A stretch of 64,000 bases of DNA, taken from assembly GCA_964553015.1 (NCBI GenBank), contig CAZKJE010000001.1, positions 94,278-158,277 of the forward strand. Direction: 5' to 3'. Source of the stretch: an uncultured Candidatus Saccharibacteria bacterium (GTDB lineage: Bacteria; Patescibacteriota; Minisyncoccia; Phycocordibacterales; UBA9973). A program made the translations under genes and the position numbers. Positions 2,898 to 46,278 of the stretch are shown one piece after another. Numbering within the stretch: position 1 is the first letter of the stretch; the number at the start of each line of letters is the position of its first letter. A model generated the notes under the pieces. It was not told the origin of the DNA. It was given only the letters and a program-made list of their open reading frames with translations, and searched no databases.

Positions 2898-4262
2898 TTA
2901 GGTTTTTATTAATTCCAAAAACTCTTGAGTTTTTTGCTTCATCAGGCTTTCTGACTTCGCTTCCACGTTTAAGCGTATAAGCGGCTGGGTATTGGATGAG
3001 CGTACGTTTGCCCGCCAATCCAAATATTCAACCGACACGCCATCCGTGTGGTCAATCTTCCCTTCTGCAAATTTCTCTTCAATATCTTTGAAAATCAGCT
3101 TTATTTCTGCCTGTGATTTAAGGACTGTATTTATCTCGCCCGAAACAAAATACCGCTGGAAATAAGAATTAAATAATTCTGAGACCTTTTTCCCCGATTC
3201 TGAAATAATTTGCAAAATCAACAAAAAAGGAACAAGGCCGTTATCTGCATAATAAAAATCTTTAAAATAAAAATGTCCGCTTCCTTCACCGGCAAATACA
3301 GCATCCTCTTTTCTCATTCTTTCCTTGATAAAACTATGGCCCACTTTATTTAAGAGTGGCGTACCGCCAGCTTCTTTTACTTTATCTATAATAGCCCAAG
3401 TTTCCCTGACGTCATGGATAATCTTTGCGCCGGGATATTTCTCGCAAAAATATTTACCCAAAAATGCCGTCAGATAATATCCGGGAATTGACCGCCCATT
3501 TTCGTCAAAAAGAAAAAATCTGTCGGCGTCGCCGTCCCAGGCCGCGCCCATATCCGCTTTTTCTTTTTTTATCAACTCCTCGGTTTCTCCCCTGTTTTCC
3601 TTTAAAAACGGATCTGGCGGACCCTTGGGAAAGCTCCCGTCGGGAATCTCGTTTAAGGGAATAATTTTTATTGGTAAATTTAATTCTAAAATATTTTGCA
3701 CCGCCAAACCAAACATGCCGTTTGCGACCACTTTCATCGGCTTAATTTTACTTTTATCAATAAAACTGAGGCATTTATTTAAATAGTCGCTTGCAATATC
3801 TTTTTTTGTAAAAGTGCCGGGAATGGGTGATTTAAAATCATACCCAGACAATACTGTTTCTTTAATATCATTAATTCCGCTGTCTCCGGAAATTGGGACC
3901 GCATTTTTACGAACCATTTTTATTCCATTGTATTCCCGCGGATTATGCGACGCTGAAATGATCAAGGCATCATAGCCGTATTCTCCGGAAACAAAATAAA
4001 TCATATCGGTGCTGATTACTCCGATATCAATGACATCTACACCGTGATTAATCAAGCCGTTTTTCATTGCTTCAAAAAGAGCCGGCCCGGACAGTCTAAC
4101 ATCGCGGCCAATGACAACCGTCTTCGGTTGCGCAAATTTGGCGTAAGCCTGAGCTATTTTATAAGCTATTTCGGGATTAATTTGCTCGGGATAAATACCC
4201 CGAATGTCATACGCGTGAAAAATTGAAGGATCCAAAGTTATAATTTTTTTATTTGGCAGCAT
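2898..4262 (-). CDS. Phosphoglucomutase/phosphomannomutase
   Basis: 454 aa. Active-site loop SASHNPREYNGIKM (phosphoserine motif S-H-N-P), Mg loop GAAWDGDADR and sugar-binding GEGSGH. Confidence 0.85.
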   Translation of the reverse strand: MLPNKKIITLDPSIFHAYDIRGIYPEQINPEIAYKIAQAYAKFAQPKTVVIGRDVRLSGPALFEAMKNGLINHGVDVIDIGVISTDMIYFVSGEYGYDALIISASHNPREYNGIKMVRKNAVPISGDSGINDIKETVLSGYDFKSPIPGTFTKKDIASDYLNKCLSFIDKSKIKPMKVVANGMFGLAVQNILELNLPIKIIPLNEIPDGSFPKGPPDPFLKENRGETEELIKKEKADMGAAWDGDADRFFLFDENGRSIPGYYLTAFLGKYFCEKYPGAKIIHDVRETWAIIDKVKEAGGTPLLNKVGHSFIKERMRKEDAVFAGEGSGHFYFKDFYYADNGLVPFLLILQIISESGKKVSELFNSYFQRYFVSGEINTVLKSQAEIKLIFKDIEEKFAEGKIDHTDGVSVEYLDWRANVRSSNTQPLIRLNVEAKSESLMKQKTQEFLELIKT

Positions 4263-11647: not shown

Positions 11648-11672
11648 CTAGGGCAAGGACCGTCCTTGCTAG
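11648..11672. repeat. REP-like GC-rich palindrome, family 1 (ctagggcaaggaCCGtccttgctag); also a bidirectional terminator-like hairpin between convergent genes
   Basis: 7-bp stem gcaagga/tccttgc with loop ccg, exactly in the 28-bp gap between the 11644 and 11673 gene ends. Related copies at 12869, 42565 and 43267. Confidence 0.7.
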
Positions 11673-12815
11673 TTATCTATCCGGTAATAATTTCTCGGCA
11701 TTCTTGTAGGCGTATTTTTCTTGAACATCCGGATTAAGCCTTCCAATAAATGCGCGACTGTATCTTATCAGCGCTTCGCCCACTTTCAAATCGAGCGACC
11801 ATGGCGCTCCGGCGCCGCGATCTGTTCCCCAAATTATCTGATCGGGATGCTTTTCAATAAAACTCTTCCACGTTTCAAGATCTTTTTTAAGAAGCGGTTC
11901 GTAATCTTTAAAGTGAGCCAGAAACTCTTGCTTGCTTACTTCTGGTCTCATAATAAAGGTGTCTCCATAAAGCTCGTCTACTTCATAATAAGCGTTTGGG
12001 TGGCGAGAGAGAATATCATCTATATGTTTCAAATTTTGCCTGCCTCCTTCTTCGTATGGAATGAGCTGGTCTCCATGCCAGATAAAATTTACATCAGAAT
12101 TTTCCGAAAGCACTTTTTCAAACGCCTCCTTTTGACCCCTTCCCAAATGAAAATAAACAAACAGATTATTTTTCTTAATCACAGGATAAATCGCTTCAAG
12201 CCTCGGAGAATCAGGCGGGAGCGCTGGGGCGCCTTTCGGCCCGCCGTTGTCTCCTCGCTCATAAAGGCCTATCTCTCCGTAGCCTTTGAATAAATTTGGA
12301 TAGACCGCAAGCATTTTTCGCAATTCTCCGGCCGTGACTGTCGGAAACCCATCAGCTCTGTCATCGCGGTCTGGCGGCATAATGAGAGGGACAAAGCGCT
12401 CGGGGTATTTTTCCATCGTTTGTTTAACCAGTAAAAGAGATTCGTCAATGATAGGTTCCCACACCGGGAAAAAAGCAAATACCTTTTTAATATTTTCTGA
12501 TTCCATCAGGCAGACATAATCCGCCATGGCAACATTTATTCCCATGCCGAGACGTTTCATAGGACCGTCAGGCTTTCTGAAAGGTCCATCGGGAATTGGG
12601 GGCACATGCATATGCGCGTCGATCAAAGCGCCTTGATATGAATCCGGATATGGCTTTTCTTTTTCTATAGCCTCGCAATTTTTGGGAGCCACTGCGGCTT
12701 CCACCCATTTATCACTCCCTCCCGCTTCTATTCTTTCTCTGATGCGAGGCGCAACAAAAGCTATTCCTGCTAAGAGAATAACAGCTACAACCATCCAGGT
12801 AATTTTCTTTTTCAC
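11673..12815 (-). CDS. Amidohydrolase-superfamily (TIM-barrel metal-dependent) hydrolase with N-terminal signal/TM
   Basis: 380 aa. N-terminal TM, then LIDAHMHVPP (the HxH metal motif of amidohydrolase-2 family) and downstream His/Asp ligands. Confidence 0.6.
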   Translation of the reverse strand: MKKKITWMVVAVILLAGIAFVAPRIRERIEAGGSDKWVEAAVAPKNCEAIEKEKPYPDSYQGALIDAHMHVPPIPDGPFRKPDGPMKRLGMGINVAMADYVCLMESENIKKVFAFFPVWEPIIDESLLLVKQTMEKYPERFVPLIMPPDRDDRADGFPTVTAGELRKMLAVYPNLFKGYGEIGLYERGDNGGPKGAPALPPDSPRLEAIYPVIKKNNLFVYFHLGRGQKEAFEKVLSENSDVNFIWHGDQLIPYEEGGRQNLKHIDDILSRHPNAYYEVDELYGDTFIMRPEVSKQEFLAHFKDYEPLLKKDLETWKSFIEKHPDQIIWGTDRGAGAPWSLDLKVGEALIRYSRAFIGRLNPDVQEKYAYKNAEKLLPDR

Positions 12816-12868
12816 AAAATTAAGTATACCAAAAAATAATCAATACGACCAAACCATAGACAGTAATA

Positions 12869-12892
12869 AGCAAGGACCGTCCTCGCTAGTGC
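12869..12892. repeat. REP-like palindrome, family 1, degenerate copy (agcaaggaccgtcctcgctagtgc)
   Basis: 22/23 nt identical to the 11648 copy, with one stem mismatch. It lies upstream (promoter side) of the amidohydrolase gene, so it cannot be that gene's terminator, consistent with a dispersed repeat. Confidence 0.6.
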
Positions 12893-41951: not shown

Positions 41952-41972
41952 ATCTCCACCCCGCCCTAAAGG

Positions 41973-41993
41973 GCACCCCTCAAGAGGGGAATT
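41973..41993. repeat. REP-like element, family 2 (gcaCCCCTCaaGAGGGGaatt), copy A
   Basis: Stem cccctc/gagggg. The same ~38-nt unit (c.cc.accc.gc.c.aa.g.gc.cccctcaagaggggaatt) recurs at 42392-42430. Confidence 0.6.
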
Positions 41994-42013: not shown

Positions 42014-42385
42014 ATGAGAAAAATAGGAATAGTGATTTCTGGACTTATAAGTTGTTTGGGAATATTCGGAACTATAATAGGATTAAGTGATCCACGTGCT
42101 TTAGTTTCTTTAATACCATTGATTTACTCAACACTGATCTTTATCAAATTGAAAAGAAACACCGAGTTTGAGAAAACACATAAGTTTACTGTAATTTCTT
42201 TGGTATTATTTTCGCTTTTTGCAGGATTTTTGTCATTGATATTTTTGTCCTTCCTTAAAGTAACGGCATCGGGTGATGGTGTAGGTTGGTATGGAATTAT
42301 AGGGTTGGAAATTTTATTGACTTATGCTTCAACACTATCTTTTTTGATCTACATAGTAGAATCAATTGTTCATAAGAAATTCTAA
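42014..42385 (+). CDS. Hypothetical small membrane protein (3-4 TM), bracketed by family-2 REP copies
   Basis: 123 aa, hydrophobic, no motif. Confidence 0.45.
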   Translation: MRKIGIVISGLISCLGIFGTIIGLSDPRALVSLIPLIYSTLIFIKLKRNTEFEKTHKFTVISLVLFSLFAGFLSLIFLSFLKVTASGDGVGWYGIIGLEILLTYASTLSFLIYIVESIVHKKF

Positions 42386-42408
42386 ATATACACCTACCCG
42401 GCGCAAGC

Positions 42409-42473
42409 GCCACCCCTCAAGAGGGGAATTTGCACATCCGAATTTTGTATTTTATTCCCCTCTTGAGGGGTGG
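42409..42473. repeat. REP-like family 2, copies B and C in inverted orientation (19-bp perfect inverted repeat cacccctcaagaggggaat / attcccctcttgaggggtg around a 24-nt spacer)
   Basis: Read directly. The arms can form a long stem-loop, resembling a subterminal hairpin of an IS200/IS605-type element or a BIME-like REP pair. Confidence 0.65.
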
Positions 42474-42505
42474 ATCGCTTTAGCGAGACGGGGTGGACGC
42501 ATCTT

Positions 42506-42562
42506 TTTAGTCGAAATAATTCTTAAGCCTTGAGATTTTTTCGTGCTGGCGGAGTTTTTCGA
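42506..42562. repeat. 57-bp direct repeat, copy 1 (duplicate of the rpoD 3' end; encodes ..[17 protein letters not shown] on the minus strand)
   Basis: tttagtcgaaataattcttaagccttgagattttttcgtgctggcggagtttttcg versus the 43324-43379 copy gives 51/57 identities. All 6 differences are synonymous in the rpoD reading frame. Confidence 0.75.
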
Positions 42563-42564
42563 AG

Positions 42565-42589
42565 TTGAGCAAGGACCCCCCTTGCTCAA
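42565..42589. repeat. REP-like family 1 copy (ttgagcaaggaCCCCCcttgctcaa), left flank of the RAYT gene
   Basis: Stem gagcaagg/ccttgctc, the same stem as the 11648 and 12869 copies. Confidence 0.65.
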
Positions 42590-42616
42590 AATTATTTTCA
42601 GGTTTATAATGGATGC

Positions 42617-43297
42617 ATGGAAAGAAAAACACCGTTTGTTGAGGGCGAACACTACCATGTATATTCCAGAGGAGTAGAAAAGCGAAAAATATTTATGACT
42701 ACAAAAGACTACGATCGCTTTGTGGCTCTTTTGTATATTATGAATCAAGATGCTTCGTTTAGAATGGAAAATTTTCTACGAGACAAACAAAAAAGTTTAA
42801 AAGATATTTTTAAAGAGCAAAGAGGGAAACCCCTTGTATCGATTCTAAGCTATTGCCTTATGCCCAATCATTTTCATTTGATTTTATATGAACACAGAGA
42901 AGGCGGAATTAGTAAATTTATGGGCAAACTTTTAACTGCGTACTCAATGTACTTTAATACAAAATATGAGCGAAGCGGTCCCCTACTAACTAGACCATTT
43001 CGTTCAGAACACATAAGTAGTGAACCGCAGTATATGTATATATTTTCATATGTTCATCTCAACCCAATATCAATAATTGATGGAAAATGGAAAGAAGAAG
43101 GCGTAAAAAATAAAAAAGAGGTAGAAAAATTTCTGGAAAAATATCAATTCTCAAGCTACCAAGATTTTCTAGGAAAAAACAGAGGAGAAATCGCTATTAT
43201 TGATTTTTCTTTTATCCCGGAATATATAAAGGAAATGAAAATAGATTTCAAATGCTTAGAACACAATTTTGAGCAAGGGGAGTCCTTGCTCAGTTAA
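42617..43297 (+). mobile_element. REP-associated tyrosine transposase (RAYT; IS200/IS605 Y1 HUH transposase fold)
   Basis: 226 aa. HYHVYSRGVEKRKIF, LSYCLMPNHFHLILYEH (HUH motif H-F-H) and the catalytic Tyr region LLTAYSMYFN. Flanked by family-1 REP hairpins at 42565 and 43267. The last ~8 codons are encoded by the right REP. Confidence 0.75.
43267..43293. repeat. REP-like family 1 copy (ttttgagcaaggGGAGTccttgctcag), right flank of the RAYT gene
   Basis: Same gagcaagg/ccttgctc stem in inverted-loop form. Confidence 0.65.
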
Positions 43298-43323
43298 AGC
43301 CTTCGTCCATAATCAGAATTATA

Positions 43324-43379
43324 CTTTAGTCGAAATAGTTTTTCAATCTTGAGATTTTTTCGTGCTGACGAAGTTTTTC
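43324..43379. repeat. 57-bp direct repeat, copy 2 (the functional 3' end of rpoD)
   Basis: See copy 1. This copy is contiguous with the rpoD ORF. Confidence 0.75.
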
Positions 43380-44540
43380 GTGCACTTTGGCCTCAATCTG
43401 GCGGATACGTTCGCGAGTAACTCCGAATTCTTCACCTACTCTCTCGAGGGTGTGTTGTATCCCGTCTAAAAGCCCGTAGCGCATTTCCAGTATTTTCCTT
43501 TCTTTCGGATTTAACTCGTCCAGCACTTCACGGATCTGATCTGACAAAATACGGCGTGAAGATTCCTGATCGGGACGCAAAATTTTGTCGTCCGGAATAA
43601 AGTTCTCCAGAGTTGATTTATCATCGTCGTCCCCTACCGGCTGCTCGAGAGACACAGTTTCTTGTGAAATATTTTCTATAACATGGATCTTTTCCACGGG
43701 TATGCCCATCTCGGTCGCAATTTCTTCAGCCAGAGGCTCGCGGCCCAAATCCTGCGAAAGCCTGCGGTGCGTCTGCTTGTATTTAGAAATTGTTTCCACC
43801 ATGTGCACCGGTATGCGAATAGTCCTCGATTGGTCGGCAAGAGCGCGGGTGATAGACTGGCGGATCCACCACGTAGCATAGGTGGAAAATTTATACCCTT
43901 TTGTCCAGTCAAATTTTTCCACTGCCTTAAACAAGCCGAGGTTTCCTTCCTGAATAAGGTCGAGCAAGGTAAGGTTTGCCGACCGACCTACATATTTTTT
44001 AGCAATAGAAACCACGAGACGCAAGTTTGCGCGGGCCAGCAGATTCTTCGCCTCCAAGTCCCCTTTTTCAATTCTTTTTGCCAAGTCTTTTTCATCGCCT
44101 GCGTGAATGAGCGGATACTGCCCGATTTCTTTCAGATACATCTGGATGGAATCATGCATCGCCCCCTTGTTCAGATCTTTGTCATTTGCATCGAGGTCGA
44201 GATTGAGCAGGTTTCCGCCTTCAAGCACGTCTATGCCAGCCACGCCGAATTTCTCATACAGCTCGTCTAGGAACAAAATGTTGTTTTCTATGTCAGGGAA
44301 AGTTTTTAGTATCTCGTCATACGTGATAAATCCCCGCTTTCGCCCCTTTTCTATGATGCTGTTTGCGAGCGTTTCCAGAACTTCGGCCTTTTTCTCAATG
44401 TTAGATAACTTTTTTACTTTTTCTTTTTTGACAACTTTTTTCGCAACCTTTTTTAACTTAGGTCTGGCTTTTTTCCGGATTTTTTTTGCCTTTTTTACAA
44501 CTTTCGCTTTTTTATTCAGCTTTTTATTTTTCTTTTTCAT
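43326..44540 (-). CDS. rpoD: RNA polymerase sigma-70 factor RpoD with Lys-rich N-terminal region
   Basis: Region 2 ([65 protein letters not shown]) and region 4 ([54 protein letters not shown]) are canonical. Start moved to MKKKNKK (44540) to avoid a 53-nt overlap with dnaG. The ORF-track start is 44597. Confidence 0.9.
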
Positions 44541-44544
44541 GGTC

Positions 44545-46278
44545 TTATTTTTTTGAACGACTATTTTTAATATCTTCTTTTTTCTTATTGAGCTCATTTA
44601 TTTCTTTTAAAAGTTCTTGTCCGGTTTTTTCATTTGTGGCATACCGGAGCTCAAGCATCTTTTTTCCCAATTCTTCGTTTATCTTTTCTTCTTCCAGATT
44701 TAAAGTCATTTCTGTTATATTTCTTTTCAAATTATCATCATTTTCGTAAAATATTTCTGCTTCAAAGATGAGATCCTCTTGGCTATTTTCATATTTATCG
44801 TATGCGACTTTTAGTTTTTCAAATATGCTTTCAAAATCTATGGCAGGAGCAGGTAGGGACTTCTGCCACAGCGCAATGCCTAAGAGCCTCCGTTCTATAT
44901 AATCTTTTCTATACAAGTTCGTGAGTGTTTCACCGGCTTTCTGTATTTCTTCCTTTTCATATTTATGTTCTTGCTCAATCTTTTTTAAATCTTCCAATAA
45001 GAATGCTTCCGAAATGGAGGTTTCGTCTTGTATTTTTTTTAAAAAATTTGCTTTTTCAGAAGACTTGCTAAGCGCTCCGACAAAAGGTAGGACTTTTTCT
45101 TGAATTACTCTGCTCATTTTGTGCGAATCACTGCCTGATTCTTTGACAGCTTTCGCTAATAAAAATTCTATTATGTGTTTGGAATTTTTTATAGCTTCCC
45201 GCCAGGCATCTGCACCAGATTTACTAATCAAATCTGCCGGATCTACTCCTTCCGGCATGTCTACCACTTTTACATCCATACCCAAGGATAAAGCTATCTT
45301 GCCAGCACGAACCGTGGCATTTACGCCGGCCTTGTCTGCATCAAAGGAAAGAACGAGGTTCTCTGACAGACGCCGTATGAGGCCAAGATTGCTTACAACC
45401 CGCTCTTTGGAAATTGTTGAGTCTGATAAAGCTGTGCCGGAAGTTGCGACTGTATTCCTGTATCCTGCCTGATGAGACAAAATCAAATCCATCTGCCCTT
45501 CCACTAAAATAGAAAAATTATTTTTTCGGATTGATTCTTTGGCTTTATCTATTCCATATAAAACTGCGTTTTTGGTGAAGATCGGAGTTTCAGGACTATT
45601 TAAATATTTAGCGGACTTGCCGTCATCCACAAAAATTCTGCCGGAAAAAGCTACGATGCGTCCGCTTGAATCCGCGATCGGAAACATTATTCGTCCGCGA
45701 AACCTGTCATACATGGCCTTATTTTTATCCTCGGGTCTCTTGGCAAGTCCGGCAAGCTCTATCTCTTTGTCGGTAAAGTTTTTAGACTTAAGATGATCAT
45801 AGAGAAGCCGCCAGTCGAGAATTGCGAATCCAATCCTGAAATCTTTGATACTTTTTTCATTCAATCCGCGAGCTTTTAAATATTCTAATATCTGTGAGTT
45901 ATTTTTTAAATTATTCTCAAAATAGTTAGTAGCCTCTTCCATTACTTCATACAATTTTTCTTTTTCACTCTTACTCTCTTTGGCTTCTTTTGTATAAGGC
46001 TCGAGTGGAATTCCGGCGCGATCGGCGAGAAGCTTTAGTGCGCCTTTGAAATCCAGCCCCTCAAATTCTTCCACAAAAGTAAAAATATCTCCGGACGCCG
46101 CGCAGCCAAAGCAATAATATGTTCCCCGTCCTGGCGAAATAAAGAACGAAGCTGTCTTTTCATTATGAAAAGGACACTTGGCCTTTAAGTTTGCGCCTGC
46201 CCCATCAAGCTTTATATATGAAGAGACTACTTCTTCAATTGATAGCCTCTCCTTAATTTTTTGTACGGGAGAATTCAT
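44545..46278 (-). CDS. dnaG: DNA primase
   Basis: CHC2 zinc finger [30 protein letters not shown], then a Toprim domain ([19 protein letters not shown]). dnaG-rpoD order conserved. Confidence 0.9.

Follow-up and report, generated by a model that had tools for sequence, protein, structure and literature searches.

A hairpin-bounded Y1 transposase module behind rpoD in a Patescibacteria genome, flanked by two rpoD ends of probable separate descent

The 3' end of the sigma-70 gene rpoD occurs twice in a stretch of 64,000 nucleotides (nt) from an uncultured Candidatus Saccharibacteria bacterium (assembly GCA_964553015.1, contig CAZKJE010000001.1, forward-strand positions 94,278 to 158,277); the whole of this stretch is referred to here as the window, and positions are counted from its first letter. 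Between the two copies of the gene end lies a module of 0.76 kb that starts 33 nt beyond the rpoD stop codon, is bounded by hairpins and carries a Y1 transposase as its sole gene. The features of the locus are the following.

42506-42561, minus strand: left copy of the repeat (discussed below as a relic), 17 codons plus stop of rpoD, the stop codon at 42507-42509
42565-42589, plus strand: left hairpin, TTGAGCAAGG-ACCCC-CCTTGCTCAA, with a 10-bp stem; DNA fold -10.6 kcal/mol, z = -6.6
42566-42599: left terminal inverted repeat, 34 nt, containing the left hairpin
42605-42610, plus strand: TATAAT box, 6 nt upstream of the transposase ATG
42617-43297, plus strand: transposase open reading frame (ORF), 226 aa; Pfam Y1_Tnp PF01797, 35.3 bits (cutoff 23)
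43270-43292, plus strand: right hairpin, TGAGCAAGG-GGAGT-CCTTGCTCA, with a 9-bp stem
43293-43324 (to 43325, the first base of the repeat): spacer from the right hairpin to the rpoD stop, about 33 nt
43325-43380, minus strand: right copy of the repeat, comprising the stop codon of the live rpoD and the 17 codons before it
43326-44597, minus strand: rpoD, 423 aa; Pfam sigma-70 r1.1, r1.2, r2, r3 and r4
44545-46278: dnaG, the upstream neighbour of rpoD

The direct repeat measures 56 nt, with 49 of the 56 positions identical and a start-to-start spacing of 819 nt, as given by a repeat search and by a separate alignment, and a 17-mer taken from it occurs at only these two sites within the 64 kb. 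Read on the minus strand, both copies encode the identical peptide, the right copy being the true end of rpoD, while the upstream end of the left copy is cut off 3-4 nt from the left hairpin. The seven nucleotide differences fall in six codons (CTC/CTT, CGC/CGT, AGG/AGA, CTT/TTG with two changes, AAG/AAA and AAT/AAC), and every one of them is synonymous; when seven substitutions were placed in the repeat at random, none of 20,000 simulations was entirely silent. A preliminary description of this DNA, made from the sequence alone, had reported a cassette between 57-bp repeats with six synonymous changes. The cassette is as described there, with small corrections only, and the repeat and its synonymy stand, the counts becoming 56 nt and seven differences; its view that both copies bear the mark of coding constraint agrees with the simulation. 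An independent Logan assembly contig (SRR12113420) is 100% identical to the window over 42400-43808 (1409 nt).

Each module hairpin is the core of a 34-nt inverted repeat, and the two repeats are 91% complementary. The right hairpin overlaps the final codons of the transposase ORF and, on the minus strand, constitutes a terminator-like structure 33 nt behind rpoD. The spacer behind the live rpoD bears no relation to the sequence behind the left copy, and it holds the -10 box of a promoter-like site on the minus strand. This site (43346-43318; TTGAAA-17-TATAAT, 11/12) is built from the last rpoD codons together with the spacer, and it is directed antisense into the transposase gene, with the right hairpin behind it resembling a terminator.

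The encoded protein belongs with the IS200-like HUH/Y1 enzymes, as the preliminary description had proposed. The Pfam match lies above the cutoff, and the HUH motif (H85-F86-H87) and the residues Y145, N149 and P150 (in YVHLNP) are invariant among 25 homologs. A search of PDB sequences with the family profile yielded nothing below E = 0.1 (ISDra2 TnpA at E = 0.1), so that a fold search was needed; with an AlphaFold model (pLDDT 71) the top Foldseek match was 4ER8, the Escherichia coli REP-associated tyrosine transposase (RAYT) bound to its repetitive extragenic palindrome (REP), at E = 5e-5 and probability 1.0, with the TnpA proteins of IS200, IS608 and ISDra2 as runners-up. The further label of a RAYT/REP cassette holds for the fold, of which a RAYT is the nearest relative; it does not hold for the sequence, which at 38.8 bits is under the cutoff of 80 for the NCBIfam equivalog REP_Tyr_transpos (NF047646), nor for dispersed REPs, as within the 64-kb window the module hairpin was found at the two cassette ends only. 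The protein is therefore described here as a predicted RAYT/IS200-type enzyme of single-stranded DNA rather than a genuine RAYT accompanied by REPs. Homologs number more than 2300, with identities of about 70-85%, and come nearly all from Patescibacteria metagenome-assembled genomes (MAGs; labels Nomurabacteria, Paceibacterota and Parcubacteria), and two diverged paralogs occur together in at least nine MAGs (among them L004/L024, L013/L031 and L026/L028, in the numbering of loci introduced below).

A second type of hairpin is present in the window in two copies, around one gene. Its sequence is (A/G)GCAAGG-ACCGT-CCT(T/C)GCT, at 11649-11673 and 12866-12890, with the same GG-N5-CC build as the module hairpins, and the pair encloses a gene for a 380-aa Amidohydro_2 protein (11673-12815, minus strand) and no transposase, making up a hairpin-gene-hairpin unit. 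Units of this kind with other passengers adjoin the transposase in L005, L007, L009, L010, L011 and L031.

A total of 160 loci around transposase homologs were retrieved and labelled with L-numbers. The order of hairpin, about 25 nt, TATAAT, ATG, then stop and hairpin is constant, and the layout of the left end is kept in about 30 relatives. Each genome has its own stem sequence in the module hairpins, while the loop on both sides is usually ACTMC. Judged by the loop, the hairpin pair is in direct orientation in the majority of about 30 close relatives, whereas in the window it is inverted. One hairpin with a flipped loop (GTAGT/GGAGT versus ACTAC/ACTCC) on the same stem was observed in L008, L015, L016, L018, L020, L029, L031 and the window, which suggests inversion of the loop or replacement of single hairpins.

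Direct repeats were sought in the flanks of every module, as were peptides of the rpoD tail. At least 12 further Patescibacteria loci have the same anatomy, at the ends of rpoD, of an ABC-F ATPase gene, of dsbA, of a small gene convergent with ABC-F and, in one case, at a 5' end. The repeats and the differences between their copies are these.

L025: rpoD 3' end, 44 nt, 4 differences
L028/L144: rpoD 3' end, 71 nt, 3 differences
L013: rpoD 3' end, 30 nt, about 93% identical, 2 differences, one of them in the stop codon
L090/L093: rpoD 3' end, relic of about 38 nt, the functional tail differing at 2 aa
L091: rpoD 3' end, 24-nt relic, about 65% identical to the live tail
L023/L137: ABC-F ATPase 3' end, 57 nt, 3 differences
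L012/L159: ABC-F ATPase 3' end, 28 nt, 3 synonymous differences and 1 at the edge of the junction
L142: ABC-F ATPase 3' end, 50 nt, 3 differences
L138: dsbA 3' end, 97 nt, 99% identical
L126 family: dsbA 3' end, 24 nt of the dsbA tail within a 33-nt repeat, 85% identical, one codon differing (D/N)
L119: 3' end of the small plus-strand gene convergent with ABC-F, 56 nt, 87.5% identical, 5 synonymous differences within the shared peptide
L141: 5' end of a gene, its first 16 codons, 50 nt, 4 differences

In every case the detached copy is cut off 0-19 nt from the foot of a hairpin: where the gene stands on the right of the module the relic is cut at the 5' foot of the left hairpin, and where it stands on the left the cut is at the 3' foot of the right hairpin. 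The other limit of the similarity lies at or very near the stop (or start) codon across cases; for those rpoD and ABC-F cases that were examined it is the stop codon itself, and in L138 and L126 it falls about 8-10 nt further on. Differences between copies are nearly all synonymous, with a joint probability under random substitution below 1e-15 in simulation (the L159 row, which was in the wrong frame, was disregarded there, and the L159 differences were taken from the alignment); the exceptions are the less conserved dsbA, in one codon, and L090/L091, in two residues. Stop codons stand just upstream of the relic in L025, L028 and L013, which places the relics of these relatives outside ORFs and leaves them untranslated. 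The window does contain a minus-strand ORF (42507-42632) that runs through the left copy, and a role for the relic as an ORF of its own was considered and rejected, as this ORF has no counterpart and the relatives have stops just upstream of the relic. In L141 the two copies (2289-2338 and 3664-3713) both encode MENNKKGFIDVLVGLQ with four silent differences, and the detached copy begins at the 3' foot of the right hairpin. In L090 (3699-3880), and likewise in L093, the rpoD relic has an intact module on one side and, on the other, a pair of hairpins some 115 nt apart with no transposase, a pair that looks like a miniature, non-autonomous version of the module.

It is clear from the synteny of close relatives that the module is an insertion. 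The loci closest in rpoD (L083-L089, 97% aa identity) have the same arrangement, rpoC ... dnaG-rpoD, dsbA, DUF378 and GT2, and their dsbA-rpoD junction is empty, dsbA abutting or overlapping rpoD. Alleles with and without the cassette, which the preliminary description had considered for the population, thus exist between species; within the population no second strain was found, exact-protein look-ups with rpoD, a 123-aa ORF beside dsbA, dsbA and the transposase returning only the sample SRR12113420. The cassette-free junction predicted for this genome, with the left tail fused to rpoD, reads GGCGGAGTTTTTCG continued directly by TGCACTTTGG. Among the 140 loci with enough flanking sequence, 65 have a conserved housekeeping gene converging on the module within 1.6 kb (rpoD in 37, pyrG in 12, ABC-F ATPase in 11, pyk and fusA in 2 each and prf in 1), and from the stop codon of the neighbouring gene to the right hairpin there are 5-33 nt where this was measured. 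Both the nature of the neighbours and the short distances fit a spread that is anchored by homology. In 43 of 63 cases a transposase and its nearest neighbour have the same target gene, where chance would give 37%, and on deeper branches the targets are mixed. Small genes found between the module and rpoD in relatives mostly lack a Pfam match, and the others are His_Phos_1, GNAT, DUF6624 and EamA; the idea of a common passenger family at this position was dropped, the Pfam assignments being disparate.

Exchange between lineages can be seen directly at L004 and L025, which share a tract of 630 nt (L004:4612-5241, L025:4051-4685) at about 100% identity in a background of about 80% (transposase, rpoD, dnaG). 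The tract takes in the final 65 nt of the transposase gene, the right hairpin, an orphan gene and the first 20 nt of the rpoD tail; it was found by a scan for shared 32-mers, having been missed by megablast, whose high-scoring segment pairs ran on into the 80% sequence. The orphan gene (159-182 aa) lies between module and rpoD and has no Pfam match. Over the loci compared, transposase identity to the window is not correlated with that of the rpoD core (Spearman rho 0.22, p = 0.24), and the loci with the nearest transposases (L090/L091/L093) have dnaG genes among the most distant, so that the transposase, judged by these comparisons, does not track the host markers rpoD and dnaG.

The divergence between the two copies in the window is of the size found between species. 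Among these genomes rpoD cores are 74-80% identical in nucleotides and 90-97% in protein, and between species the rpoD tails differ at 7-13 of 54 sites, all of them silently; the window's own copies differ at 7 of 54, a divergence at the species level. Two tails that both evolved as working genes would be expected to differ by synonymous changes throughout, and the similarity would be expected to stop at the stop codon because the downstream DNA differs between lineages. An instructive case is L091, in which the relic encodes the clade consensus RLKNYFD and stop, and the live tail has RLKNHFD and stop (Y to H).

As to which of the two copies is the resident, evidence comes from what lies behind the left one.

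42410-42473: stem hairpin behind the stop codon of the left copy, with a perfect 20-bp stem; DNA fold -30.1 kcal/mol

One arm, ATTCCCCTCTTGAGGGGTG, follows the stop codon of the left copy (42454-42472), and its perfect complement stands right behind the dsbA stop (41974-41992); the palindrome appears to be the remnant of a native bidirectional terminator of dsbA and rpoD. In L091 the stop of the 24-nt relic lies 1 nt from that of dsbA and the relic adjoins the left hairpin, a stop spacing of about 1 nt between dsbA and rpoD is also present in L126, and the genes overlap in the cassette-free L086-L089. In L090 an older module with its tail has apparently been displaced by the newer transposase-less hairpin pair, which brought another tail. 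Taken together, the terminator arm, the spacing in L091 and L126 and the nesting in L090 indicate that the left copy is resident and the right copy imported, and the left copy is best read as the resident rpoD end, now a young, putatively untranslated relic, the right copy having come with the module. The nearest relatives gave no answer on polarity, the available rpoD genes being only 74-80% identical in nucleotides and their silent sites near saturation; the left copy differs from the L028 rpoD tail at only 2-3 of 54 sites, which is suggestive but possibly a matter of chance among 91 pairs. An orphan membrane ORF of 123 aa (42014-42385), without a Pfam match and absent from cassette-free relatives, lies between the arms of the palindrome. 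It is flanked by a 34-nt imperfect direct repeat (82%; 41960-41993 and 42397-42430) and splits the apparent native terminator, which it would have entered after the palindrome arose.

The 56-nt repeat is thus probably made up of two orthologous rpoD ends from two lineages, set next to each other by a horizontal insertion, with no duplication inside this genome. In the ancestor, dnaG-rpoD would have converged on dsbA with the palindromic terminator between them. The incoming DNA would have derived from another Patescibacteria lineage in which the module already stood a few bases behind rpoD. On the rpoD side the fragment would have been anchored by homology within the conserved gene, so that its own 3' end, the right copy, became the working end; on the far side its end would have coincided exactly with the outer foot of the left hairpin, the joint with the resident strand lying 56 nt ahead of the resident stop codon, and the resident tail, the left copy, severed from its gene, would have become the relic. 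The intermediate may have been a linear fragment, with a homologous anchor and a joint at the hairpin foot, or a circle, with one cut at the foot of the hairpin and another at a relaxed site within the adjacent gene, that recombined within the tail. Whether the end at the hairpin foot was made or joined by the Y1 enzyme is close to an even call. The E. coli RAYT acts on single-stranded DNA only and depends on the hairpin, needs just a C followed by a T at the cleavage point, cuts more than 400 nt away and transfers strands (PMC3333891), and an enzyme with such relaxed cutting and strand transfer could make ends of the kind seen here. On this history the coding constraint belongs to the past of two separate lineages and not, as the preliminary description had allowed, to both copies in this genome at present, and there is no sign of the in/out switch that was envisaged there as restoring the rpoD tail.

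Several observations weigh against this history or parts of it. Neither a donor nor a pre-insertion strain of this species was found by the exact-protein look-ups, and the import is deduced from other species for that reason. The joints have no cleavage motif or microhomology in common among the relic ends compared: the window and L090 both break within TTTTTCG, between C and G, the other relic ends differ, and the joints of L012 and L091 are compatible with a cut between C and T or with 4-nt microhomology where other joints are not; a sequence-specific step by the transposase is to this extent unsupported, and illegitimate recombination by the host at hairpins may make the joint. Neither a transposase nor a hairpin of this kind accompanies the repeat around the 123-aa ORF, and host recombination alone may accordingly give rise to such repeats without a Y1 enzyme. 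The loops of the window hairpins are flipped relative to each other, which is not so in most relatives. Finally, about a dozen young, barely decayed relics require a high turnover of insertions, although rapid deletion of older relics would explain them as well.

Other explanations must be set against the same evidence. An integrative-element cycle is an unlikely but not negligible account, in which a circular module with a captured rpoD tail as its 'attP' would enter by a single crossover, homologous or Y1-catalysed, in the resident tail and be excised reversibly, both copies being hybrids that are used in turn. The final structure is exactly of the Campbell type, like that of e14 in icd (PMC6379469), the repeats would necessarily be in frame, dsbA tails and the 5' end of a gene provide mirror-image cases, and the distant cuts and strand transfer of the E. 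coli RAYT could yield circles that include neighbouring DNA (PMC3333891). However, both the length of the repeat (24 to 97 nt) and the break point vary by genome, and over several genes, which leaves no fixed attachment site; there is no integrase in the insert, RecA would act poorly on 56 nt of 88% identity, the look-ups showed neither a circle junction nor an empty allele for this population, and the L004/L025 tract is the product of ordinary double-crossover exchange. The polarity could also be reversed, the right copy being native and the left copy a foreign fragment of an rpoD tail carried on the left end of a module that inserted behind the stop codon. Many relatives do have the module 5-33 nt behind the stop and no repeat, and the 2-3 differences per 54 sites between the left copy and the L028 tail are far below the 24% divergence of the remaining rpoD. 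Yet the left copy is contiguous with an arm of the native terminator palindrome whose other arm is behind the dsbA stop, L091 and L126 keep the spacing of about 1 nt expected of a direct dsbA-rpoD junction (with overlap in the cassette-free L086-L089), and the L090 relic lies between the older module and the newer hairpin pair, as expected if newcomers displace the resident tail; these points make a reversed polarity very unlikely.

A duplication in place, whether as a long target-site duplication or by slippage or template switching at a hairpin, and followed by divergence, is more improbable still. The 97-nt repeat of L138, at 99% identity, could be fresh, hairpins are able to stall replication, and the synonymous-only pattern would have to be ascribed to selection on both copies, as in a switch, or to chance. 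A neutral relic, by contrast, would be expected to accumulate mostly non-synonymous changes and indels, an expectation at odds with the simulations for the window and for the loci jointly; the relic stands outside ORFs, being closely preceded by stop codons in L025, L028 and L013; a duplication would not as a rule end at a stop codon as the rpoD and ABC-F boundaries do; and the L091 relic, about 65% identical to the live tail, nevertheless encodes the clade consensus from which that tail has departed. It is hardly credible, lastly, that the assembler merged the rpoD ends of two strains into a single contig. The source is metagenome-assembled and the copies differ at a strain- or species-like level, but the independent Logan assembly has the identical 1409-nt configuration across both copies, the same architecture recurs in more than 12 unrelated assemblies (MAGs and metagenomes), and what separates the copies is unique sequence with an intact, conserved gene.

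The juxtaposition of two lineages' rpoD ends by insertion has counterparts in several known systems, none of which matches it fully. With the RAYT/TnpA_REP proteins (E. coli YafM, 4ER8) the transposase has in common the HUH/Y1 fold, the HUH motif and the tyrosine in Y-x-x-x-N-P, and in both the gene is flanked by hairpins, those of most relatives being direct and those of the window inverted; relaxed cleavage and strand transfer as in the RAYT (PMC3333891) would fit the variable joints of the modules. The window protein, however, is about 60 aa longer than the E. coli RAYT, the module hairpins are not dispersed (two copies in 64 kb), and the single-copy, vertical inheritance expected of RAYTs is not what is found here, given two paralogs in at least nine MAGs, no correlation with rpoD and empty nearest relatives. 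Position at the ends of housekeeping genes, with replacement ends, is likewise not described for RAYTs. Elements of the IS200/IS605 family (IS608, ISDra2) resemble the modules in having a Y1 transposase between sub-terminal hairpins on one strand, edges at hairpin feet and no short target duplication; the repeat is not of the kind that IS200-like HUH enzymes make as a target duplication, a point that the preliminary description had rightly made for RAYTs. Unlike the modules, these elements have a fixed tetra- or pentanucleotide target and fixed cut distances, where the joints here lie 0-19 nt from the foot and share no motif, and they occur in multiple identical copies, where the window has one. 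The inserted module DNA, moreover, has only one end that is defined by a hairpin, the other lying in homologous gene sequence.

The closest conceptual precedent, by analogy of structure, would be e14 and phage 21 in icd, with which may be compared tRNA-gene islands and Rac at ttcA. As with the module, insertion takes place inside a conserved gene end: e14 supplies a near-synonymous 3' end of icd and leaves a pseudo-icd fragment (PMC6379469), and the replacement end and the old fragment come to flank the insert as imperfect direct repeats. Those elements rely on a tyrosine or serine recombinase and a fixed core, whereas the module has a Y1 gene only and a break point that varies, an insert of only 0.76 kb, several target genes affected at 3' and 5' ends, and a joint at a hairpin of the type seen with single-stranded DNA enzymes. 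The combination of one homologous anchor, here rpoD, with one non-homologous joint is shared with homology-facilitated illegitimate recombination. That process was reportedly described in naturally transformable bacteria by de Vries and Wackernagel and by Prudhomme and colleagues, both in 2002. For the present hosts, transformation would have to be presumed; in the modules the non-homologous end is always the hairpin-bounded edge, and the joint lies inside the anchor gene's own tail, giving a repeat and not a deletion. Between L004 and L025 a comparable crossover can be seen within the rpoD tail. In the one-ended transposition of IS91 and ISCR, an element with an HUH Y2 enzyme has one of its ends fixed and carries along neighbouring host DNA of varying length. 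That enzyme class differs, with two tyrosines and rolling-circle replication, and in the modules either end can be the fixed one.

Patescibacteria (the Candidate Phyla Radiation, CPR) are uncultivated bacteria with tiny genomes, and to our knowledge almost nothing is known of how they gain genes. No description was found in the literature of RAYT-like modules that rebuild the ends of rpoD or other housekeeping genes across Patescibacteria. For annotation, such repeats should not be taken for switches or target duplications; the relics of displaced gene ends are instead a sequence-level footprint of DNA import across lineages that can be dated. If the enzyme does make the joint at the hairpin foot, the rebuilding of target-gene ends would extend from integrase-bearing phages and islands to HUH enzymes of single-stranded DNA, and a function would be suggested for RAYT-like proteins beyond the REP-rich proteobacteria. 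A broader and more doubtful proposal, offered tentatively, is that Y1 enzymes and hairpins together form a homology-anchored delivery system in Patescibacteria, and that this is one of the main ways in which these reduced genomes acquire genes. One end of the segment would be set by the enzyme at a hairpin foot and the other inside the neighbouring conserved gene (rpoD, pyrG, ABC-F, fusA, prf or pyk), and the module with its hairpin-bounded passengers would cross between species by recombining in that gene and rebuilding its 3' or 5' end. Were this to be true, such modules would be the HUH-enzyme counterpart of the integrase elements that target tRNA genes or icd.

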